A DNA stretch of 64,000 bases from a virus: IMG/VR virus record IMGVR_UViG_3300010149_000010. One strand, written 5' to 3'. Shown in pieces: positions 6,779 through 38,978 of this stretch. Each line of letters begins with the position of its first letter. The stretch's first letter is position 1. The notes below the pieces were generated by a model, which was not told where the DNA came from, did no database searches, and saw only the letters and a program-made list of their open reading frames with translations. Made by a program: the position numbers and the translations under genes.

Positions 6779-8266
6779 TTAGTAGTTTTCAAGTATTTTC
6801 AATATATCAGATATATTATCTGTATTCTTTATCTTTTCGTATAAATTCTTATCACTTTCAGTAATCTTTGGACTAGTTTTCTGACCGTGTTGATTTTCTG
6901 GTTTAGAAATGTTGTTGCTGACATTTAATTGAGCATTACTTTTCTTTTTCGGATAAAGAATTTCATATAACTCTTCTTTATCTTTTTCTTGAATTGGCCT
7001 TTCACCTAGCTTGACTCTTGCTTCCGTTTCCGAAAGTAAATTGTTCAACCAAAGCTGAATTACTTGATTTTCTAACTTAATTTTTTCTTCTTTATCTACA
7101 GCGCCAAATTTTATATAAACCATTCTGTCAGGATTGACTATGGCATCTTGATATCCGCCCTCACATAGCAATTCGTTAATTATATACGTTTCAACAAAAG
7201 TCTTAACATTCCTTTGCAACGCTTCTACATCTTGAATTGCTATTTTTGAAAGTGCATTTGCAGTACTTCTATTGGCTGAATCTCCTTCACCCATATCCAT
7301 TGGAGTTACTCCTAGTCCTGCGTAAACTCTTTTTTTAAAATAATCTAAGTATTCTTTTATTCTTAGAGCTTTTCCTTCAGAACCAATAGCTGATATCTTA
7401 TGCCTATGGTCAGAAACAAAAATACCACCCGAAGGCATGTACTCTATTGTATTTCGGACAAGGTCTGATTCTTTTGTTCCGTCAGGACCGTACCTTTCTG
7501 GCATCGTATCACTTCCCACAGTATAGTGGTACAATGGATGAAGGTTCGAATCTATCATTTCTTCAATGTTTTCTTCTAGTCTTCTTAAAAGAGCAACATC
7601 TTCTAGAACTGGTAGTATTTCTGGCGTTCCCATAGTGAACCCAGGTTTTTTATTCGTATAAAAGTGTATGATATCGCTTGGCGAAAATTCTTTGCTTTCA
7701 GAATTACCTGGCTGCTTTTGTAAGATTTTTTTTAATTCTCCGTTTTTCTTTAATTTAAACCATAATGTTTCAAAAGGTAAAATGAAATAACCGGCCACAG
7801 GTTCTATTTCTTTTTCTCCTCGCTTAAGTACATTTCCAGAAGATGCATCTTTATTTCTAGTCTTTACCCAAGCACAATTACTATATCTGACTAAGTCATG
7901 CGCCAAGTCCGCCATTAACAAATTGAAAGGTACGCCTGAGACCGTTTCTATCTCTTTAATTCTATAATTAATATATTTAACAGTTTCTTTATCGTTACCT
8001 ACAAACTCCCACCCAGCTAAAATAAACCTTTGCACTTTTTTCTGTATCGCTTTAAATAAAAAAGCGTCAGTGTCTTGCGCTATCTGTATTTCTGTAAGAT
8101 CGTATTCAGGTTTAAACCAACGTCCCCTATGCCTATCTGCATATGACATTGCTCTGCCGTTAATTTTTTTAACTTTAACGCCGGAAAGTTTTGCACCTTG
8201 AATCGGTACATTTCGATCTTTGTTAGATATAGCGTTCAACATGTTTTCAAAATCGACTGCTTTCAT
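6779..8266 (-). CDS. Portal protein
   Basis: 495 aa; FSPSDIIHF..GTPEI, AGLGVTPMDMGEGDSANRSTA, LLSETEARVKLGERP portal-like motifs; synteny. Confidence 0.85.
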   Translation of the reverse strand: MKAVDFENMLNAISNKDRNVPIQGAKLSGVKVKKINGRAMSYADRHRGRWFKPEYDLTEIQIAQDTDAFLFKAIQKKVQRFILAGWEFVGNDKETVKYINYRIKEIETVSGVPFNLLMADLAHDLVRYSNCAWVKTRNKDASSGNVLKRGEKEIEPVAGYFILPFETLWFKLKKNGELKKILQKQPGNSESKEFSPSDIIHFYTNKKPGFTMGTPEILPVLEDVALLRRLEENIEEMIDSNLHPLYHYTVGSDTMPERYGPDGTKESDLVRNTIEYMPSGGIFVSDHRHKISAIGSEGKALRIKEYLDYFKKRVYAGLGVTPMDMGEGDSANRSTANALSKIAIQDVEALQRNVKTFVETYIINELLCEGGYQDAIVNPDRMVYIKFGAVDKEEKIKLENQVIQLWLNNLLSETEARVKLGERPIQEKDKEELYEILYPKKKSNAQLNVSNNISKPENQHGQKTSPKITESDKNLYEKIKNTDNISDILKILENY

Positions 8267-8281
8267 TTTGTTTCCTTATAA

Positions 8282-10534
8282 TCAAGTAGATGCAATTGAT
8301 TGAGCTATCAACAGATTACCTTTTGCTAATTCAGGGGAATCTAACTCATCGACTACTATGTTGGGTATTTTCTTTAAAACTTCTTCTAGATCTGTGTCAG
8401 GCCCAGATTCGCTAAGACTCGTTAATCCTTCTGATTCATACTTTATTCTTGCATACATAATATGCTCTTCCTCTATAGATATAAAGTCTTCTTCAGGATT
8501 ATTAAAATCCCAAAAAGGCAATCTGGGAATAAAATCTGCATCTTCACTGGTAGAAAACAATACCACATAATAGATAATGGCTTTGTCATTTCTTTCCTTA
8601 AAAGAGCACATCTCTTTAGTTTTCTCTATAAAAGAACTCCCAAAAGAGTCCATTGCTATAAAAATGATCTGGTTCACATTCTTTGTTTTAATGATACCTT
8701 CATATCTCTTTTTTATGTTTCCGCCATTAAATCTTGCAGGCAGCCCAGCCCCAAAAAATATATTGTCTTCTACCATTACGTCATAATTAGGCAAATAATC
8801 TTTAGGGTCTCTTTGACCGCTATGTTCTATTGGCAATTCTAGAGTCGAAAAGAAACTGCTACCTAAAGCAGCATAGTCTTGTTTTGAATTCATGTTCGCT
8901 ATAAAGCCAGCAATTGTACTTTCAATCTCAGATATACACGCTGTCATTAATGCTATTCTTGCATTGTCGTAGTTGATTTTTTGATTGCCAATTTCCATTG
9001 GAAGTGCTAAAGGCAAATTTAACATATTTGCTAGTATCGTCATACTGCTATCTAGTACATTGGTATCAGTGCTGGTAATTTTATTATATACTGGCTTTAC
9101 AACAACATCTACGAAATTTGCAGTAGGGTTAATTTGTTTGTATTTTTTCCAAAACCATATCCAGAATGCTAAAGCTCCTCCATAAGAAAAACTTAAATTA
9201 TTAAAAGAATCTACTACTCTAAAAAACCCGCTTTTTATTTTCTGTTCATATACACTTTTTCGCGCCGCTGCTTTTTCAGCTTCCGTATCCACAAGCGCCG
9301 CTGCTTTTTCAGCTTCTGTAACGAACTCATTTAATTCATAAATATGATCAGAAATAGAAAAAACAGTCATACCTTCAACCATGAGTTTAAAACACCAGTT
9401 AGCTTTTCCAATTTGCTGATACTCAGCCGAATTAGTTATAACTCCGACTTGACTTAAATGATAGCACTCATGCCTAATGGTATTTTTGTACCTTTCATAC
9501 TTTTCATTACCTTCATAAGTTGGGCTTTTATAATCAAACAAATCAAAAAACATTATTTTTTCACTAGGGCTAACATGAGCAATAATGCCACTTTTTCTGT
9601 CTTTTATATACTTAAATTTTACTTCTATTTTATTAGGAATACCTTTTAAGTGGTCGAAACCACTGTAACTCGTTGCACTTCTAGTAGCAATTTTAAACCC
9701 ATCTGCAATTGTTTTTTGAAACAACTTATTGCTCATGATGAAAGTTAATTCACTCAGCCTTTGCTCAATAGAAACTATTGCACTGTATTTTTCTTCAAGG
9801 TAGTCGTCATTGAAATTATATTCTAGTAAAATAGTATTATCTGCACCCAGCCCCACTTGAACTAATTGCTTAAAAGAACAAATCCCTAATTTAAACTTTT
9901 CTGCTTTGCTAGTGTACCCTAATTCTTTAAAAACTTTGATATTAAGAAGAGTACTATCTAGTTTTTGATCCTCGTAACCAGTTAAGAAATTATTTATTCT
10001 TCTTAATTTTGCAAACTTCAAAGATGCGTTAGCTATTTTTCTTAAATCTCTTACATAGCCTTCTTTTCTTGAGATATCTGTATTTAACATATCGTCGTAA
10101 AAATGTATTAACGGTTTAGCTATAGTACTTGTAGACTTTGGTGCTGTCTCTCTTACTCTCTCTTGCTGAACTGGCTCTTTAGGTTGCTCTGTCCTAGGAG
10201 GAATCATTGTTGAACCAATTGCAGAACCTACAATCTCAGGTGCTGGTTCCAGAATCGGTTGAGCAGCGCCAACAGGCTTTGCCTCCTCCGTTGGCTCCAG
10301 TCCCTTGCTTGAAGCATCAGTACTATAAGGTACCTCAACGTCGCTATATCTTGGTTTTGGTAAAAAACCAAGAGAAGTTAACTCTTCTATTGTTTTTCCT
10401 GCAGGGACTTCTTTGGTAATAACTCTTACACTCTTTATACTTTCTTTACCTTTGTAAAGTTTTTTCAAGTAAAGGTCATAAGCTTTGGAAACGAACTCAT
10501 TTGAGCGTTTTTGCGGATCAAGCGTGTAGCCCAT
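8282..10534 (-). CDS. Putative zinc metallopeptidase (HExxH)
   Basis: TIRHECYHLSQ followed by MVEGMT (gluzincin-like third ligand); Pro/Glu-rich N-terminal linker. Confidence 0.5.
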   Translation of the reverse strand: MGYTLDPQKRSNEFVSKAYDLYLKKLYKGKESIKSVRVITKEVPAGKTIEELTSLGFLPKPRYSDVEVPYSTDASSKGLEPTEEAKPVGAAQPILEPAPEIVGSAIGSTMIPPRTEQPKEPVQQERVRETAPKSTSTIAKPLIHFYDDMLNTDISRKEGYVRDLRKIANASLKFAKLRRINNFLTGYEDQKLDSTLLNIKVFKELGYTSKAEKFKLGICSFKQLVQVGLGADNTILLEYNFNDDYLEEKYSAIVSIEQRLSELTFIMSNKLFQKTIADGFKIATRSATSYSGFDHLKGIPNKIEVKFKYIKDRKSGIIAHVSPSEKIMFFDLFDYKSPTYEGNEKYERYKNTIRHECYHLSQVGVITNSAEYQQIGKANWCFKLMVEGMTVFSISDHIYELNEFVTEAEKAAALVDTEAEKAAARKSVYEQKIKSGFFRVVDSFNNLSFSYGGALAFWIWFWKKYKQINPTANFVDVVVKPVYNKITSTDTNVLDSSMTILANMLNLPLALPMEIGNQKINYDNARIALMTACISEIESTIAGFIANMNSKQDYAALGSSFFSTLELPIEHSGQRDPKDYLPNYDVMVEDNIFFGAGLPARFNGGNIKKRYEGIIKTKNVNQIIFIAMDSFGSSFIEKTKEMCSFKERNDKAIIYYVVLFSTSEDADFIPRLPFWDFNNPEEDFISIEEEHIMYARIKYESEGLTSLSESGPDTDLEEVLKKIPNIVVDELDSPELAKGNLLIAQSIAST

Positions 10535-28002: not shown

Positions 28003-31000
28003 ATGCGTAAAGCAATTTTCTCACTTTTCCTTGGCCTGCTGTGGGCAGCTAGCTGTTATTCAGTCTATGTTGCTCCTCTAGCATTGCCTGCGTCCGCCGT
28101 GGATGCAGCGCCAATTGTTCATCCTTCAGCAGAGGTCGCAAAACCTCTTGCTACCAACCGCACTGACAACGCAACTGCTGAGATTGACCATCTTCGCAGT
28201 ACTACTATTAACAGTGGAAGCTCTACCCCTAGTCAAGGTACCTTCCCCATTAATAACCCTAACGCATTACGTCCTCGTCGTAGAGGTATTATGCGTCGCA
28301 GAAAGCTGAAGTCACGAAAGGGCAACCGCCTTGTTAGTGATGCCTTTATCAAATTTGTCTTTGGTTACCACCGTGTAACTTACATGAGTGGCAATTGGCT
28401 GTGTTACGAAGAGACGCCTTACACAGAGGCAGACTTCAAAGTGAGTAAACCAGCTAAAGCTCGTAAGAAAGCGAAGAAATCCTGGCGTCAGCTAAAGGGT
28501 GAGGCAACACGTCTTTACCAGAAGGCTGCAAAGCTTCGTAAGCGCAATCCAGAATATCCGCCTGCAATAGCCTGTGCGGTGTTTGCCAAAGCACAAAAAC
28601 TTCATCATAAAGCCAATGATATGAAGAAGGCATTAAAAGAGGCTCAACCGACAGCACGTCAACAGCGTTCATTCCGACGCTCAGTGTTGAGAGCGGAAGC
28701 CAAAACTTGCGAGCAGTTTATCAAAGCTGAGTTAGTGAGCAATGTGGACCAAGCTAAAGAGCTGATTCAAAAGGTCCTCAGTGGTGACACTAATGGAGCT
28801 GCATTGAGACTATTACAAAAATCTCAATTAGGGCGCATTTACGTAAAATATGGTATCCTCCAGGCGCCGATGAAAGAGGAAGAAGTCGAGAGACCTACGA
28901 ACCCAGTAGTCAGACACATCAAAGTAGCAGAAACCCCTGCAAGGGTATGGACCCCATTGATGCGTGCAGCGATTATAGTTATTGCACCACTCATGCTAGG
29001 TATGGATGCGGATGTAGGTACCGTCGCAGAAGTCACTTATGCTAGTGCTTCTGGTGGTATTTTAATGATGACCCTGAAGAACGTCTTGAATACTCCAGCC
29101 CGTAAGCGTGAAGCAGCGCAAGACGGGTACAATCGTTACGCAGAGCAGTCGATCAAAGCTGCAAAGGGTAGTGAATGGGATGTTTTCTCCCTCATGCGAT
29201 TCAGTCGCAGTGGTAAAGGTGCGCCGATCACCAACGGCAAAGCCCACGATACTGACAAGCAGAAGGGTCGTGCTGTCCGTATTATTCAAGATAGCATCGG
29301 CGGGGCGTACTGCCCAAAGGTAAAGTCATTCGCCAGGATGCTTGGAATTGAACTCGGCGTGGACAACTGTCTCCGTTATGAAGTTGACGACCAAATGGAT
29401 GAGGTACTAAAAGCTGACGTCGTCGAGATCTTAATGGCAGCCAGCTTTGTTATTCTTTGTGACGGCTTTGCTGTTCACAAGAGCATTGCTCGCCCCTTCA
29501 TTGAGTACGGGGAGACTATGTTCGGCAATGCTGTAGCTGTGCGCTCTTACTTCCGCAGTCTAATCACCACACCAGAGCTCTACACGGTCAACCAGGACTT
29601 ACCTATCTTCTTGGGTGACCTCGATGAGCTTATGGGATGGGCGGAGAACGATGGTGGCGCTGTGCATACCAATCGCCTGAGCGTGAGCATGCAGTTCCGA
29701 GGGATCGCGAAAGTGCTTGAGGCGAAGTACCGCATCTTGTCCAAGGGCATCACAACTTCTGCTAAGGTTATTGCTGACATCACTGATGACGTCGACAAGC
29801 CTGTCTTCGTCAACTATGAAGGCGATGAGGAAGGCCACATCAAGGGTGAGGTTCGCCTAAGCAAAAAGGTTGACGAGTGCATCCGTGTTGCAGTAGAGGA
29901 AGAATTCAACGCTCTGCATGCTGTTAACACGGCGACTAAAGAGCAGCTTTGCTTAGTTGCAGGAATTGGCCCTAAGACCGCTGAAAAGATCGTTGAAGCT
30001 CGTAATGCTGCAGGTGGGGCATTCGCTGACATGGATGCGTTCTACAACGTGTCAAGGCGCCTTGATCCCAGCAACCCGGACGCGCTTCGCGTCTTGCGTT
30101 GGTCTTTTGGCCACAAGGGCCGTGTTTACTCAGTGGGCCTATTCCTTGACAAGGGTTGTCTCAAGGGAGAAGACAAGAATGCTTGGGACTGGAACAAGCT
30201 CAACTTCTTCGGCGTCAACGGCCAAAATGTCGACTTCTGGTCTATCGCTATCGACCAGATTGGCGGCAAGATCAGCTTGGGCTGGCAGGTAGTCCAGTTA
30301 TTAGACGCTGACTTCATCGGCGGTTTGTTCAAGAACACTGATGGTAGTCTTGGAATCGCGGCCCAAAAGTTAGCGCGCCAGATCGACAATGCAATCGAGC
30401 AGGAACACCCTCTTTGTAAGCATCTCCTTGATGCAATTGAAGACAAGGGCGGTGACATTGAAAACTTGATGTCAGCCGTAAAAGCTATTTCCGTGCTTCA
30501 GGGCCTCGGGAAGACCGCCTCTAAGCGCATCAGCAATGGTCTCGGTGCGAAGGCAGGATCTTACTATGTTCAGATGATCGACATGGGTGGCGACTGGGTA
30601 ATTATCAAAACACCCAAGGCCAAGGATGGCAAGGGTTACAAGCGATGGGCTACTTGCTTCTTCGGTCGTACACCGAACCAGGGGCACGAGACCGTCCGCG
30701 CACCTATGGCGCTATCACCAACTTATGTCGGTGGATTCTTGAGGGATTATCTTGATAATGGCTTTGACGCTGTAGAGAAGCACGGCAAACAAGCCGTAAA
30801 ATTCGTTATGGGTCTCAATGATGCTTGTGGTCATGATACCGATGTAGTACGTCTTCGCTGCCGTGCGATCTTGACGATGCTCCCAGCTGTAATTGATGGA
30901 ATTGCTTTAGTCGACTCAACTCTACAACAAAAGGTATGCGGCGACAATGATGGCGACCGTAACATGATCAGCTTCGACAAGATGCTCGTTGCAATCGCCA

Positions 31001-34000
31001 AGCATATCACCCGTAAGCATCCTACTACATTCCCTGCGCGCGAGCAGTCAAAGAAGTTCGTTCTCAATACCTTTGATGATGTGGTCTTGGAGAAGGGCGG
31101 CTGGCTTCGTAGCTTTAACAAGTACATGAAAACAGGTGACTCTTCGGAGTTGCTTCTCATTTCCAAGTTCCTTTCTGCCCCCGGTGGGACTCCAGGGCAA
31201 GGGAACGTGGGTGGTGTGACGCAATGTGCTGCTGCACCAATGCTTTTCTGTGACTGGCACTGGGTCAAGAAGGATGGCAAAGATGTCTACGAGCCAGTCA
31301 ATCCAGCCGCTCGCAAGTTGGTCAATTATCTTTACTTGTGCCAGCAGATCGCCATTGACCGCCAAAAGTATTACTATTTGGCGCCTTCGCTGCTGCATTG
31401 GTTCTTTGCTGACCTTGAGGTTGGTGACGCAGTCATCAAAGAGTTGAAGGCAGGCGGCCATGCGGACACTAATTGGCTTCACAGTCACTACCCAATTCAG
31501 GGTGCTGCTGATATGTCGTTCGAAGAATACCAAGCCGCTTGGAAAAATGGTACATTGCCTGTGATCTCAGAGATCATCCCAGGCATGGGTAAAGGCGCTA
31601 TGGGCGGTCAATCTGTCGCTCCGATGATGTACTCCAACGGCCCGCTTTACGTGTGGACCGCGTGGCAGGTTAACGGTATTAACCTCGGCTTTGATTACTT
31701 CGATAAAGACAGGATGGTTGAGCTTTCTGGGTTCTTTGACGAAGAGATTGCTCAGACTGCTGACTGGCAGGGTATCATTGACCACCTCAATCTCAGTGTC
31801 TCAGCTGAACAGCTCGAGGAAAGCTGGGTGTGGCCTGGCTACATCACGGGTTGGGTCAACACCAACTTCCGTGAGTCTCAAGATCTCTCTCCAGAGACCT
31901 TCCAGTCTGCTCGCATCCATGCCAACAATGTGTGGCTCGAGAAAATGGAGCAGGCAGGTATCGATGCTGACCCAGCCGTAACTCTCGTTGAGAGTGGGTT
32001 GGCTGACGTTCTCAAGGAAAAAGCTGGCGATTATGCAGTGGAAATGCCTGCATGGGGCACACGCCTGCTAGCAACTACAATCTACCGCAGCTATGTTGCA
32101 GGTAGCTCTGAGGCTGCTGAGGCTATGAGCCAAAGCGCTCGTCTGCAAACCGACCATCACGCGTCAGGCTCCGACAAACTTTCATTCCTCCGACAAGCTC
32201 TTACGTCACGCGACATGGACGTTTCTGTTGGGGATATGAAGATTATGGAGTCCATAAAGGATCTTCGTTTCGTTTGGGCTAAAGCGTTGCAGAATGACAA
32301 AATGTCGGACGAGCGTCGACTGCAAGTCCTCTGCGCAATGATGCACTTCGGCATTACTGTCATCGCAGACTGCATCGAGGAGCTTGAGAACGATAAGACT
32401 TCTCAGATTGCTCAGAACTTCATCTGGGCACTTGAGGACCACGCAATTGCTGATATTGCCGCTCTAACTACCGCTGATAAGTGGAAAGAGTGGCGTGACG
32501 CTAATGATGCTACCTACAGCGGGCTAGAAGCAAAAAATCGCCGTGAGATGATGGATACCTGCCGAAAGCTCATGAATCGCGATGGATTTTACCACTGGAT
32601 TAGCCAACAGAACCTCAACTCCCTCAAGGCAGAGGATATCGCTACCTGGTTGGTGATGGATGGTGAGGAAGCTCACAGCAAGATCATAGACTTTATCGGT
32701 TCTGACTTCTTCGGTGCAATTGGTGAGGCTTGGTCTCGTCAAGAGCTCAAGGGCTCGCGCAACAGCGTTGAGGATGAACTGATGGATATCATCACCGATC
32801 TTATGGAACTTCCAGTTGACGACAACTTCATGGGTTGTGTAGAGGGATACTCTCGTGACTTAATCCAAGAAATCAGGGACGATGAGCTGAGGCTCCAGTC
32901 TGAAGAGGTTTCGGATGAAGCACAGATGGCATGGTACTCGCTTAATGCGAGTGAGTATGAGCGGCATGTTGCCGCGATCACTCGCCCAATCACATCGTTG
33001 ATCCGCTTGGTAAAACACCAGATGCGTGTGCTTGAGCACAACGTTGACAACGGTGCAAACCAGGAAGACGAGATTGATGTTTTCTGGCCAACCATCAAAG
33101 CCGCTCTCTTTGGCTCCCACAAAGAGCTCGATGATGAAACTGGTGAGTGGACTGACGTCACCCACGTCGAAAGTCGTATTGTTTACGAGCTACCCGTTCA
33201 GCACATCGCGACCATGAACCTTGCGGCTCTCGAGCAGGGCTATGACGTCGAGATTCTCGTTGATATGATTGACAATCCAAAGTCTTTTTACGAAGACGAG
33301 GACGGTAATGTAGAGCTGCCTTCGGAGCCAGAGGGTTACTATTACACTCGCAAGGGGTACATCCACCTCAGCGCAATCATGACAAAAATGGCGCTTGAGG
33401 TCGAGTCTCGTGACGATGTATTGCAGTGGCTGATCGCTCAGTTCAAAGGCGGTGTTGGTCACGTCACAACCAGCAAGCACTTAACCATGGCGTATGGTTC
33501 AGCTGAGGGTCGTGATCACTTCTGGTTCGTTCCAGAGGAGGAAGCTTACCCTCAGTACCACAACGACCCGCAGGTGCTCCAGGTCCAAAAGACCTTCGAG
33601 TCTTGTTACGCTGAGACCGTCACAGTCAGCTACCTCCATGACGATGCTGAAGAAACCCTTGAGGCGCTAGAGTGTTTCGAGAATCCTGAAGCATTTTCGC
33701 CAGGGGATGTTCAATACTATGAGGACTATATGAAGGAGATGTTTGAGGTGCAGATGTATCTCCCACCTCTCTTCGGCGGCCGCTCTAACTGGGACGAGCT
33801 ATATGATGGTAAGTATAGTAAGTTCTATGACGAGCAGCTAATTATGTCACCATACAAGTTGTTGCGCACTTACAGCTTCATGATGGAGGGCCAAGATGTT
33901 AGCCAGATGTCTCTTCCAGCTACGGTGCGTGACTTCCAGAATCTAGTCTATGGTTACACTGTTGGAGACAGCAAAGGCCAAAGCCAGGGTGTGCGCAGCA

Positions 34001-34527
34001 AAGAGGCCTATAAGCGCTCTGGTCGCCAGCCTAGAAACACAGCGCTTAAGGATAACATGACTAAGAAGTCATGTGAGGATTGGACTTGGGCTGGTGTGCA
34101 GAAACCAATTACCTCACAGCTCGAGGTCAAGTTCAATGGTTCTGAAGTTGTTGGTGCTGAGAACAACTTGTGCGACATCAGCATCCGTGGCTACCAAAAC
34201 CACACCTTTGATGAGTGTTGGCGCGGTGCGTACTCGTTGGTTCGTTTCACACCTAGCCTTCTCTGGAGCTTTGCCAACGTGATGGAACCTGGTGAATTCC
34301 AAGAGATTAACGCTAAGAGCATCGCTAAGGTTGGCGCTTCTTCTATCCGTCGTCACTGTATTGGTTTCCGCAAAGCCAACTTTACAGAGATGGTTGAGGG
34401 AGTAAAAGTTACGTCGTTAAAGATGGACCCAGCAATGGTTCCCTACCTTTTCGGCATCCTTGCGGATCAAGAGGAGATCGAGATCGGCATGGACGCTCTC
34501 AATAGTCCTGACCGTCCTAACGACTAA
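28003..34527 (+). CDS. Single-subunit two-barrel RNA polymerase (YonO/cellular RdRP-like) with inserted HhH domain
   Basis: Ordered motifs NDGGA, MQFR..SKG, LDKGCLK, SLGWQVVQLL, GRTP, catalytic GDNDGD (DNDGD at 30943-30957), GNVG, IAIDRQK; ComEA-like HhH VNTATKEQLCLVAGIGPKTAEKIVEAR. Confidence 0.85.
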   Translation: MRKAIFSLFLGLLWAASCYSVYVAPLALPASAVDAAPIVHPSAEVAKPLATNRTDNATAEIDHLRSTTINSGSSTPSQGTFPINNPNALRPRRRGIMRRRKLKSRKGNRLVSDAFIKFVFGYHRVTYMSGNWLCYEETPYTEADFKVSKPAKARKKAKKSWRQLKGEATRLYQKAAKLRKRNPEYPPAIACAVFAKAQKLHHKANDMKKALKEAQPTARQQRSFRRSVLRAEAKTCEQFIKAELVSNVDQAKELIQKVLSGDTNGAALRLLQKSQLGRIYVKYGILQAPMKEEEVERPTNPVVRHIKVAETPARVWTPLMRAAIIVIAPLMLGMDADVGTVAEVTYASASGGILMMTLKNVLNTPARKREAAQDGYNRYAEQSIKAAKGSEWDVFSLMRFSRSGKGAPITNGKAHDTDKQKGRAVRIIQDSIGGAYCPKVKSFARMLGIELGVDNCLRYEVDDQMDEVLKADVVEILMAASFVILCDGFAVHKSIARPFIEYGETMFGNAVAVRSYFRSLITTPELYTVNQDLPIFLGDLDELMGWAENDGGAVHTNRLSVSMQFRGIAKVLEAKYRILSKGITTSAKVIADITDDVDKPVFVNYEGDEEGHIKGEVRLSKKVDECIRVAVEEEFNALHAVNTATKEQLCLVAGIGPKTAEKIVEARNAAGGAFADMDAFYNVSRRLDPSNPDALRVLRWSFGHKGRVYSVGLFLDKGCLKGEDKNAWDWNKLNFFGVNGQNVDFWSIAIDQIGGKISLGWQVVQLLDADFIGGLFKNTDGSLGIAAQKLARQIDNAIEQEHPLCKHLLDAIEDKGGDIENLMSAVKAISVLQGLGKTASKRISNGLGAKAGSYYVQMIDMGGDWVIIKTPKAKDGKGYKRWATCFFGRTPNQGHETVRAPMALSPTYVGGFLRDYLDNGFDAVEKHGKQAVKFVMGLNDACGHDTDVVRLRCRAILTMLPAVIDGIALVDSTLQQKVCGDNDGDRNMISFDKMLVAIAKHITRKHPTTFPAREQSKKFVLNTFDDVVLEKGGWLRSFNKYMKTGDSSELLLISKFLSAPGGTPGQGNVGGVTQCAAAPMLFCDWHWVKKDGKDVYEPVNPAARKLVNYLYLCQQIAIDRQKYYYLAPSLLHWFFADLEVGDAVIKELKAGGHADTNWLHSHYPIQGAADMSFEEYQAAWKNGTLPVISEIIPGMGKGAMGGQSVAPMMYSNGPLYVWTAWQVNGINLGFDYFDKDRMVELSGFFDEEIAQTADWQGIIDHLNLSVSAEQLEESWVWPGYITGWVNTNFRESQDLSPETFQSARIHANNVWLEKMEQAGIDADPAVTLVESGLADVLKEKAGDYAVEMPAWGTRLLATTIYRSYVAGSSEAAEAMSQSARLQTDHHASGSDKLSFLRQALTSRDMDVSVGDMKIMESIKDLRFVWAKALQNDKMSDERRLQVLCAMMHFGITVIADCIEELENDKTSQIAQNFIWALEDHAIADIAALTTADKWKEWRDANDATYSGLEAKNRREMMDTCRKLMNRDGFYHWISQQNLNSLKAEDIATWLVMDGEEAHSKIIDFIGSDFFGAIGEAWSRQELKGSRNSVEDELMDIITDLMELPVDDNFMGCVEGYSRDLIQEIRDDELRLQSEEVSDEAQMAWYSLNASEYERHVAAITRPITSLIRLVKHQMRVLEHNVDNGANQEDEIDVFWPTIKAALFGSHKELDDETGEWTDVTHVESRIVYELPVQHIATMNLAALEQGYDVEILVDMIDNPKSFYEDEDGNVELPSEPEGYYYTRKGYIHLSAIMTKMALEVESRDDVLQWLIAQFKGGVGHVTTSKHLTMAYGSAEGRDHFWFVPEEEAYPQYHNDPQVLQVQKTFESCYAETVTVSYLHDDAEETLEALECFENPEAFSPGDVQYYEDYMKEMFEVQMYLPPLFGGRSNWDELYDGKYSKFYDEQLIMSPYKLLRTYSFMMEGQDVSQMSLPATVRDFQNLVYGYTVGDSKGQSQGVRSKEAYKRSGRQPRNTALKDNMTKKSCEDWTWAGVQKPITSQLEVKFNGSEVVGAENNLCDISIRGYQNHTFDECWRGAYSLVRFTPSLLWSFANVMEPGEFQEINAKSIAKVGASSIRRHCIGFRKANFTEMVEGVKVTSLKMDPAMVPYLFGILADQEEIEIGMDALNSPDRPND

Positions 34528-35884: not shown

Positions 35885-36272
35885 TTTTAAGTGAAAGCTG
35901 TTCTTCGGAGCAGTTAGTAGCAAACTCGTTAACCGAAAGGTGTGACGAGACGAGACGTAGTGTCTCAAGCCTAATTCCCCTTGGCGTAAAAATGGGGCGA
36001 AAAACTTTTCCTGTCGGAACGAAAGGATCTTCATCATGACCTACTGGGTTGATGAAAGAGGTGTTGTGCACTTCGAAAATCCACGAGCTCAATAAAAGCT
36101 TTATGGTCGCAGCTATGCGTAAATAGTGGGTAGCTATACCCTTGAAATAGCCGGAGCTATGATAGCTTCGTTAGTCAGAGAATGACAAACAATCTGATTT
36201 AGACTTTTATTATAAAAAAGTCGGCAGCCTTATTAACGGACGGACGTAATGTCGCCAGTTTCAATAATAAGC

Positions 36273-36375
36273 AGTGTCGTCGGAAGCCCTTAGGGGTGGA
36301 AGACCTGATGAGTCTAGTAGTTCATTCTGCTAGCATCGCTTTAATTAGTGATGTCCTTTAGGGGAACGAAACACT
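36273..36375 (+). ncRNA. Type III hammerhead ribozyme with four-way-junction stem II
   Basis: AGTGT/ACACT stem III, GTC cleavage triplet (after 36278), GTC/GAC stem I, CTGATGA 36305-36311, GT/AC stem II base, GAAA 36368-36371. Confidence 0.8.
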
Positions 36376-37033
36376 TTTCTCATCAAGACAGCTAACGCTG
36401 GGCCCAGTGATTTTCTAAACACTTAAAAAAAAGAACATTAGAATTTTCAACGGAAGCCAGATGCGCCTTCGTAAAGAAAAGCATAGTGCTCGCTTAGACC
36501 TTCGGGTCTTACCTGCGGAAATGAATGATAAGTTCATGTTCTAAAGGATACCAATGAGAAATGGTAAGCGGGTTACTGGCACAAGGTCGCAACTTGTGTC
36601 GCTGGAGATAAAACCAGTACCCTTAGACAAGGGGTGTGCGCGGTTTGTAGAAAAAACAAACCCATATGCGCCTCATGTCAGCAGGTCAAAATACAGTGGC
36701 TATTATCAGGCATGGTAAGTAAGTCAATAAAGAATTTCTCGGGGCTGTTCTCCCCACTTCAGTAATGTAGTACTTACTGTAATAATAGGGAACCAAGGGT
36801 CAGCCAAATAAGGCCCTGGCATGGAAGCTCCTTAGCGGGAGTGGGAAAATGCAAAACCAGCAAATCGATTAGCTAGCCTTAGCGGGCAAGTTACCGAAGA
36901 GCCGGGGATCTGTAATAGTGGTGTATTACAGACACAGTGCGAATTCCAAAAGGGGGAGCTGCCGTAGATATCTGCGGTAACGAACTTGATTAGGTGTTGC
37001 GTATTTGTGCCTTGTACGATTATATTGTGCAAG

Positions 37034-37133
37034 GGTTGTGAGGAATTGGAACGCCTCGCCTGATGAAGAGATCATTAAAAATCTGCGATCTCTCTTGGAC
37101 ATCCTTTGTACTTCGGTACATAAAGTCGAAACC
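37034..37133 (+). ncRNA. Variant type III hammerhead ribozyme (extra hairpin after CUGAUGA)
   Basis: GGT/ACC stem III, GTT triplet, GTGAGG/CCTCGC stem I, CTGATGA 37060-37066, GAC..TTCG..GTC stem II, GAAA 37128-37131. Confidence 0.5.
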
Positions 37134-37313: not shown

Positions 37314-37441
37314 GGCTTGCTTTGGTAGAGCCGTGGGATTCTAGGAGATGTGTGAACCTGCTTGCATGGCAGGTGGTCATTGATCCATCGGGAAGCTGCA
37401 ACTTCCTGCCACGGTTTATGGTTCGATTCCGTAACAAGCTT
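37314..37441 (+). ncRNA. tRNA-like RNA with expanded branched domain in place of the anticodon arm
   Basis: GGCTTG/CAAGCT acceptor, TGGTA D-loop-like segment, CCGTGG/CCACGG helix, T-arm TATGG-TTCGATT-CCGTA. Confidence 0.6.
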
Positions 37442-37814
37442 TAGTCTCTCAGCACAGAGACAATCACAAGCCCTGTAGAAAGGAATATACAGGCCAGGGT
37501 AGACTCCCAATAATGGTAGAGTCCCCTGAATTAAAAGCGCGATTAAAGCGCTCAAGACTACTTTTCCTAAGGGTACAACACTTATTATTTTGACAAAAGA
37601 CGAGACGAGACGAGACAGAAACGTCTGCTGGCCACAATAGTCAAATAAATATGCGTAATAAAACTAATAAATACTTAATATATATAGTGTTTTTAGAAAA
37701 AGACATAAATAGTGAGAGTGGACCTAGTATAATAATGTTAATCGGGAAGAAAAACATTAACTAGGTAAACAATAAGCCACCCTAAAACAATCTTGCTGTG
37801 AAGCAGATCACGCT

Positions 37815-37860
37815 GCCAGGGCTCGAAAGGTCATTGTAGGTTCAAGTCCTACCCGCTGGT
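37815..37860 (+). ncRNA. tRNA minihelix-like element (T-arm plus acceptor-like stem)
   Basis: GTAGG-TTCAAGT-CCTAC T-arm; GCCAG/CTGGT closing stem. Confidence 0.35.
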
Positions 37861-37866
37861 AAGCAA

Positions 37867-37933
37867 TCGCGTATAGTGTAAAGGTACACGCCATAGTGAT
37901 ATGGAAATGTAGGTTCAAGTCCTTCTACGTGGG
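37867..37933 (+). tRNA. Degenerate tRNA/pseudo-tRNA with shortened anticodon loop
   Basis: TCGCGTA/TACGTGG acceptor, GTGT/ACAC D-stem, CCATA-GTGA-TATGG arm, GTAGG-TTCAAGT-CCTTC T-arm (one mismatch). Confidence 0.5.
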
Positions 37934-37983: not shown

Positions 37984-38244
37984 ATGCGCCGCGAAAACAG
38001 AAAGAGAATACTAATGATAACCAATAGGACTAAAGACGTGCAGAGAGCAGAGCGCCGCCAATGCTGGCAGGTATTCGGTTTGTTACAACCCCTACTGATG
38101 GTGTTGTGCATCCTCCTGGGAAACAATGATCCCAACTCACTGTGGTCATGTGCTGGCTTATTGCTGGCCGTGACCTTCGGGATTAGTTTCCCTTTTCTAC
38201 TCTACCAAGAATATTTTTATCAGTTAGGGTATGGGTGGGAATGA
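37984..38244 (+). CDS. Small 2TM membrane protein
   Basis: Two hydrophobic helices; overlaps next ORF. Confidence 0.5.
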   Translation: MRRENRKRILMITNRTKDVQRAERRQCWQVFGLLQPLLMVLCILLGNNDPNSLWSCAGLLLAVTFGISFPFLLYQEYFYQLGYGWE

Positions 38245-38528
38245 TGGAGCTCAAACAAATCGCAGAAAGCCTAGCCAGAGAGCTAGGGACGTCGCATCAG
38301 GTACTCTCGTCCTACGTGGTAAAGCAAACACCACAGAGAACGATGCCACTACTGCAACTCATTGAGTTGTACATAAAGGTGAAAGGTGAGCAGGCCTTCA
38401 TTAAGAATTATCTTGACCAAGACTCTCTTTATAAGGAGCATGGTGGTTTTTTACAGAGATCAGCTGATTCAGCTGGCAACACTTGGATTTCATTTGTCCA
38501 AAGCGTAATAGCTTTCGGTCAAATCTAA
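38235..38528 (+). CDS. Hypothetical protein
   Basis: 97-aa ORF. Confidence 0.5.
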   Translation: MGMMELKQIAESLARELGTSHQVLSSYVVKQTPQRTMPLLQLIELYIKVKGEQAFIKNYLDQDSLYKEHGGFLQRSADSAGNTWISFVQSVIAFGQI

Positions 38529-38559: not shown

Positions 38560-38810
38560 CGACTTAAGCCACAACATGGTGTTGCTTACCCACTGTCTAA
38601 TATTGGTATACTTACGGAGATATCAGTAGAAGACGAGTCAAAGCTAGATACGACCGTAATCGTTATCTGGTGGAGATAGGTAAGTAAGAGGTTCTATTCC
38701 TCTATGTGGTAGCCCCTCATGAGAACTACTTCTTCGTAGTTGGGGTTCAGGCAATTTCAGTAGCCTATATGGTTGTGCGTAAAGCACCTATACTGATAGC
38801 AGAGGTTCTC
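38560..38810 (+). ncRNA. Unassigned structured RNA candidate
   Basis: Nested helices GCCACA/TGTGGT, TTGCTTACC/GGTAAGTAA, TATTGGTAT/ATATCAGTA, CTAGATA/TATCTGG, GCCCC/GGGGT, TCAGTA/TACTGA. Confidence 0.45.
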
Positions 38811-38978
38811 AAAAAAAAGAATAATGCGCGCGATATTAAGCAACTGATTTGCTATTGCGTTCAGAAACTCTTTTTTCTCCTTTAGTAACAATAACTTAAA
38901 AGTTTGACAAGGCGAAACTTTTAAAGTTGTTATATAAAAGATTGACTTAATACACACATTCTCTAGAAAGAGCAAAAA

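Follow-up and report, generated by a model that had tools for sequence, protein, structure and literature searches.

The question raised by this locus is whether a sequence resembling a hammerhead ribozyme, in which stem II opens into a four-way junction, represents a self-cleaving RNA and, if so, what such an RNA might do for the phage that carries it. The window, by which we mean the whole 64,000 nt stretch of DNA that was analysed, belongs to an uncultivated tailed phage with a terminase and a portal protein, the contig itself being 158.9 kb long.

Anatomy of the element

Direct reading and parsing of the + strand between positions 36273 and 36375 identified a complete type III hammerhead, with every core element present. 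The 5' strand of stem III (36273-36277), which ends with U16.1, forms 5 bp with positions 36371-36375, including the A15.1-U16.1 pair. It is followed by C17 (36278), part of a GUC triplet in the canonical position, and cleavage is predicted to occur 3' of this base, which is constant in all nine branched versions described below. Stem I (36279-36304) starts with 3 bp, opens into a symmetric internal loop (GGAA/GGAA), continues with 4 bp closed by a UUAG loop, and leads into the core box CUGAUGA (C3-A9; 36305-36311), unchanged in eight of the nine versions. The base of stem II comprises two pairs, G36312-C36367 and U36313-A36366, corresponding to G10.1 and U10.2 on the 5' strand (36312-36313) and A11.2 and C11.1 on the 3' strand (36366-36367); both are constant across the versions (9/9). 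The remaining segment (36368-36375) holds the core GAAA (G12-A15.1; 36368-36371), constant in all the relatives, and the 3' strand of stem III.

Folding only the 52 nt enclosed by the 2 bp base of stem II yields exactly three hairpins, each directly abutting the next without a single linker nucleotide. The two inserted branches, H1 (36314-36333) and H2 (36334-36353), each have 7 bp and a 6 nt loop, and H3 (36354-36365), interpreted below as the distal part of the original stem II, has 4 bp and a UUAG tetraloop, and is 12 nt long in all nine versions. The first-pass annotation, which had described an intact core, a stem II dividing into three hairpins with no linkers, and the loops of stem I, proved correct in every detail that it listed when the letters were read directly and folded.

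With regard to the definition of the class, the element has the conserved core C3-U4-G5-A6-N7-G8-A9 (CUGAUGA at 36305-36311); a G12-A13-A14 run followed by the A15.1-U16.1 pair, formed by A36371 and U36277 and constant in all the relatives; and at position 17, following U16.1, a base other than G (C36278). Three helices surround the core, with G10.1-C11.1 closing stem II and stem III open, as is characteristic of type III. All the features by which sequence defines the hammerhead class (clan CL00010; type III, RF00008) are present. No credible open reading frame (ORF) crosses the element when alternative genetic codes (TAG read as Q, and code 4) are applied, and coding over the element was rejected.

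Search models and chance expectation

At gathering thresholds, searching the whole window with Rfam found tRNAs only. The Hammerhead_3 model (RF00008) aligns to the element from end to end, scoring 17.8 bits (E = 1.1) against a gathering threshold of 48.5; the score is lost to insertions of 20 nt in stem I and 52 nt in stem II, where the model expects around 12 nt. Hence the sub-threshold score is attributable to the insertions in these two stems and reflects a limit of the model, as no core feature is absent. A loose descriptor, requiring both core boxes and stems of at least 3, 2 and 4 bp, matched 27 of 300 simulated 64 kb windows (approximately 9%), so the core motif alone is not significant and the case depends on the relatives.

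Nine distinct branched versions were found in related phage contigs, all at one syntenic place behind a gene encoding a 2174 aa protein and two small ORFs. The loci beyond the window are L002/L166/L241, L001/L172, L122, L146, L248, L249, L250/L251 and L252; they were reached through neighbouring proteins, through DNA patterns and then through homologues of the upstream 2174 aa protein. Broad pattern scans of viral and metagenome collections gave mostly chance matches, with at least five family variants among the matches listed after a stem-descriptor filter. A covariance model built from just three relatives, all of subtype B, with the window left out, recovered the window element at 51.3 bits (E of about 1e-11) and scored the newly found loci at 46-56 bits. 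Run against 98 unrelated loci, 828 kb in total, all of which hold both core boxes at the right spacing, the same model gave no match at E<=1. Applied to a complete relative (G001), a genome of 161,781 bp with terminal repeats, covariance model searching detected exactly one copy of the element.

The records of several relatives are Tara Oceans assemblies, and these are therefore marine phages. The window terminase shares no more than 28% identity with its counterparts in cultured phages, and blastn of the region against cultured phages found no match. A strict family pattern likewise had no match in 185,579 prokaryote genomes, hence no link to a host or a prophage was obtained. Scans with the element lying upstream of the hammerhead and with the core of the HDV-like candidate, both described below, returned only the two known IMG/VR contigs. 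The clade carrying the element is a small group of uncultivated, roughly 160 kb marine phages.

Covariation and selection

In an alignment of the nine distinct sequences, which was fitted to the model structure and is made up of close kin, such that independent events are fewer than cells, standard pairs occupy 93.8% of cells, compared with 35-50% in controls in which the partners were slid along by one to three columns. Changes on both sides were seen in 19 of 37 pairs, against 1-3 in the slid controls, and none of 500 shuffles matched the observed covariation values. These compensatory pairs are distributed over all the helices that vary: two of five in stem III, four of five in the base helix of stem I and one in its distal hairpin, six of the ten model pairs in H1, five of eight in H2, and one in H3. 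The 2 bp base of stem II and the core boxes are constant, save for a U at C3 in L001/L172, and the GA-rich internal loop of stem I is kept in all the relatives. RNAalifold recovers the hammerhead helices unaided from the alignment.

This pattern of substitution, together with the results of the covariance model, indicates that the element is real and that its four-way junction structure is under selection. The earlier description of the element as a structural variant of the hammerhead is thereby upheld, the junction being kept in nine versions with compensatory changes in every branch; an unbranched sister element that reveals the origin of the branch, discussed in the next section, backs it further.

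The version at L001 10676-10785 and L172 3506-3615 has a U at core position 3, such that a U3-G8 wobble replaces the C3-G8 pair, and also has an A-C mismatch within H1; cleavage by this version may be slower.

Origin of the branch

In L253, the most distant of the relatives, the upstream protein is only 61% identical, and an unbranched hammerhead-like element lies at about 8245-8335 (+ strand). This shares with the window element its syntenic place; the layout of stem I, which here has 4 bp, a UGAA/GAAC internal loop and a hairpin, as in the branched forms; the GU...AC base of stem II; and a distal stem II of 4 bp and a tetraloop. It differs in lacking H1 and H2, stem II being composed of GU, 4 bp, UUCG and AC (6 bp), in a core box that is longer by one U (CUUGAUGA), in having GUA as the cleavage triplet, and in being undetected by Rfam, which returned no match at all. 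The L253 element may be a variant with an insertion in the core, or else a copy that has decayed.

As stem II of L253 equals the base plus H3 of the window element, the comparison indicates that H1 and H2 were inserted into an ordinary stem II, specifically in its 5' strand between pairs 10.2 and 10.3, and that H3 is the original distal stem II. In all nine branched versions H3 retains 4 bp and a tetraloop, which is UUAG, UUCG (L249) or UCCG (subtype B). H1 ranges from 7 bp up to a bipartite hairpin of 45 nt, with loops that are not conserved. The types of loop co-vary: a UGAA/GAAC internal loop in stem I accompanies UUCG (L249 and L253), and GGA/CGA accompanies UCCG (subtype B). That the H3 loop type tracks the type of internal loop in stem I fits a contact between these two parts of the molecule. 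Kissing between the loops of H1 and H2, which are A/U-rich and not conserved, was considered and dropped on inspection by eye.

Genomic context

The order of features, all on the + strand, is the 2174 aa gene, two small ORFs, a GACGAGACG-type motif, an element of approximately 85 nt, the hammerhead and an ORF-poor stretch; this order is conserved wherever the contigs of the relatives reach. The 2174 aa ORF (28003-34527) has only a helix-hairpin-helix match in Pfam, and a sequence search of the PDB with this protein gave no match; little was found when neighbouring proteins were compared with PHROGs and Pfam. The GC content of the 26-36 kb region, which holds this ORF, is 47-51%, compared with 32-40% in most other parts of the window.

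The GACGAGACG-type motif (TGAC-R-AG-R-CGA-R-AC) occurs three times, at 35943-35956, 37598-37616 and 38905-38918, and is confined to this zone and to the + strand of the window. Each copy precedes a unit, namely the ribozyme, the tRNA-like units and the next gene, and the motif is also found before the L253 element; it may be a phage-specific promoter. The element of approximately 85 nt, formed of two hairpins, one A/U-rich and the second small (36196-36259, + strand), is present in all ten relatives. It is nearly constant in the close relatives, and its A/U-rich hairpin covaries in L252 and L253. This element may be a leader structure, a protein site or a promoter; that it is a repeated promoter was ruled out by its single occurrence in the window. 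The hammerhead and this upstream element are common to all the relatives and the downstream RNA differs, hence the arrangement looks like a processing cassette placed before a variable cargo.

The downstream region and a candidate HDV-like ribozyme

An ORF-poor stretch is present wherever a contig reaches beyond the ribozyme, and extends for 2.3-2.9 kb where it is spanned completely. Its sequence is a mosaic between relatives, with hairpin-rich conserved modules. Two small overlapping ORFs of 86 and 97 aa lie within it (37984-38528, + strand), so the stretch is not purely non-coding. Four tRNA-like or T-arm-bearing units are found on the + strand, at 37314-37441, 37810-37860, 37867-37933 and 38660-38711, and are not called by ARAGORN; that at 37867-37933 scores 37.2 bits, reaching the Rfam tRNA threshold, and has an anticodon loop of 4 nt. 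A further tRNA-like unit, at L250 13904-13972, scores 45 bits.

Immediately after the hammerhead, the sequence at 36376-36886 (+ strand) is around 99% identical to G001 over 370 nt (L166 4250-4799, - strand); it is hairpin-rich and contains one compensatory pair. Stem I and H1 differ between the window phage and G001 despite this nearly identical downstream RNA, and from these alignments there seems to be a recombination boundary inside the ribozyme. A further hammerhead-like core, in which an inserted hairpin separates A9 from stem II, lies at 37034-37133 (+ strand); this candidate was set aside, having no counterpart in the array of any relative.

The ORF-poor stretch is bounded on its 3' side by a candidate HDV-like (theta-like) ribozyme (38712-38811, + strand), also found in three to four relatives, at L172 6474-6573, L122 5164-5280, L241 5763-5834 and in G001. 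It has a 7 bp P2 complement and a 3 bp P3 with a 7 nt loop, and changes in length only in P4 and just after P1. The Rfam model RF02682 scores the L166/G001 element at 25.9 bits (E = 6.8e-4 for the G001 genome) against a threshold of 44, and gave no match to the window at E<=5. All the helices are constant, so there is zero covariation. The candidate directly follows a T-arm-bearing tRNA-like element; published theta ribozymes have the same arrangement, lying directly after a tRNA-like element (PMC10879173). The HDV-like element is absent from L250 and L252, which rules out a fixed bracket of hammerhead and HDV-like ribozymes across the clade.

Proposed mechanism and alternative explanations

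Our explanation as a whole, which we consider likely to be correct, is that the element is a genuine type III self-cleaving hammerhead of a marine phage clade, bearing an insertion of H1 and H2 and cutting after C36278. H3 would stack on the 2 bp base, rebuilding an ordinary stem II of 6 bp, and its tetraloop would touch the GA-rich internal loop of stem I, providing the usual tertiary contact between stems I and II, which marks the extended, fast-cleaving form of the hammerhead. H1 and H2 would stack together as a side arm, which could stabilise the fold or protect the end of the RNA. Stem III apart, all the helices are local hairpins, and for this reason the active fold is expected to form co-transcriptionally, and the RNA would cut itself after C36278. 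The upstream RNA, consisting of the operon of the 2174 aa gene and the conserved leader of approximately 85 nt, would be freed with a 2',3'-cyclic phosphate end; the downstream RNA, ORF-poor and bearing the tRNA-like units, would then begin with a 5'-OH and the compact body of the ribozyme. The role suggested by this model is most likely the co-transcriptional separation of leader and operon where a non-coding RNA region of the phage begins. A scan for sigma-70 promoters and terminators in this region performed no better than shuffles, and the transcript is assumed, since neither a promoter nor a terminator could be placed.

The frequency with which the loose descriptor matches simulated windows might suggest that these are merely hammerhead-like boxes arising by chance in hairpin-rich non-coding DNA, but nine syntenic homologues with compensatory changes and a constant core, along with the lack of any match in the 98 decoy loci, make this highly improbable. 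The element might instead be a structured domain, derived from a hammerhead and no longer cleaving, that is kept as a protective fold at a 5' or 3' end or as a binding site for a protein. The deviations from the core in the relatives, namely the U at C3 in L001/L172 and the extra U in the L253 box, suggest that catalysis may not be strictly maintained everywhere; the sub-threshold Rfam score, and the conserved upstream element that travels with the hammerhead, are also in keeping with a domain of this kind. However, CUGAUGA, GAAA, C17, G10.1-C11.1 and A15.1-U16.1 are constant in eight of the nine branched versions whilst the helices change freely, a pattern expected only if catalysis is selected, and a non-cleaving domain is accordingly improbable. 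Conditional cutting, with H1 and H2 binding a protein or a small molecule, or with the fold toggling to an inactive state that pairs the region of stem I with that of H3, is consistent with the maintenance of the branch by selection and with the sensors that engineered aptazymes carry on stem II. Furthermore, in all five sequences tested (those of the window, L002, L001, L122 and L146) the minimum free energy fold is not a hammerhead and is better by 4-8 kcal/mol, with pairing between segments of stem I and H3 in four of them. Yet these alternative helices use other bases in the two subtypes and vanish from the RNAalifold consensus, which rules out a conserved switch helix; no unpaired bases from which a pocket for a ligand could be built are conserved at the junction; the length of H1 and all the loops of the branches are variable; and local hairpins should win during transcription. 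The remark in the first-pass annotation that the element is possibly regulated thus found no support, and we regard a regulated or allosteric ribozyme as unlikely.

A more elaborate version of the cleavage model would have the hammerhead and the HDV-like candidate, each cutting at its own 5' edge, excise a defined RNA of approximately 2.4 kb in the window and in three relatives. Such a 'ribozyme-flanked cassette' would have a 5'-OH, a 2',3'-cyclic phosphate and a tRNA-like 3' end, could possibly be ligated or circularised by an RtcB-type ligase of the host, and would give the H1/H2 arm the function of a handle, separate from catalysis. Neither RtcB nor an RNA ligase family is encoded in the complete relative G001. 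We judge excision in this manner to be very unlikely, and prefer a single hammerhead that separates the leader and operon from the RNA downstream.

Comparison with known systems

Hammerheads are known from between the genes of phages and prophages, where a stem II of 2 bp is common (Perreault et al. 2011; PMC3088659), and such phage hammerheads are thought to process long transcripts (PMC3088659). With these and with the type III family RF00008, the window element has in common the core, the three-stem junction, the GUC triplet, the open stem III and the 2 bp stem II, and its location in a phage is likewise consistent with transcript processing. What sets it apart from them is the perfect four-way junction that two additional hairpins create in stem II. 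In the literature searched, the main surveys included, no natural precedent for such branching was found, a result that falls short of proof. Selection here maintains a perfect four-way junction only two base pairs from the catalytic core, which a natural hammerhead would therefore tolerate. The unbranched sister in L253 provides a natural comparison for the effect of the branch on folding, Mg2+ requirement and RNA stability. As Rfam models miss such forms, phage hammerheads have probably been under-counted.

The natural hairpin ribozyme in its four-way-junction form, as studied by Lilley, Walter and co-workers, also has a perfect helical junction of this kind outside its active site, which positions two arms for docking and lowers the Mg2+ needed for folding. 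That ribozyme is of another class, with a different active site, and its junction lies between the catalytic domains, whereas that of the window element lies within the arm formed by stem II.

The purpose of phage hammerheads is regarded by the field as open (PMC6765202), and this one, marking the start of a conserved ORF-poor region that bears tRNA-like units, downstream of the 2174 aa gene in phages of a little-known marine group, offers a place at which to test what they do. Engineered aptazymes demonstrate that extra modules grafted onto stem II are tolerated, as they would be here, and in insulators of the RiboJ type the leader is trimmed away, leaving a 5'-OH, by a hammerhead that stands first in the transcript unit, a position comparable to that of the phage element. 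Both of these are artificial, whereas the graft in the phage hammerhead consists of two plain hairpins without conserved bases resembling a binding pocket.
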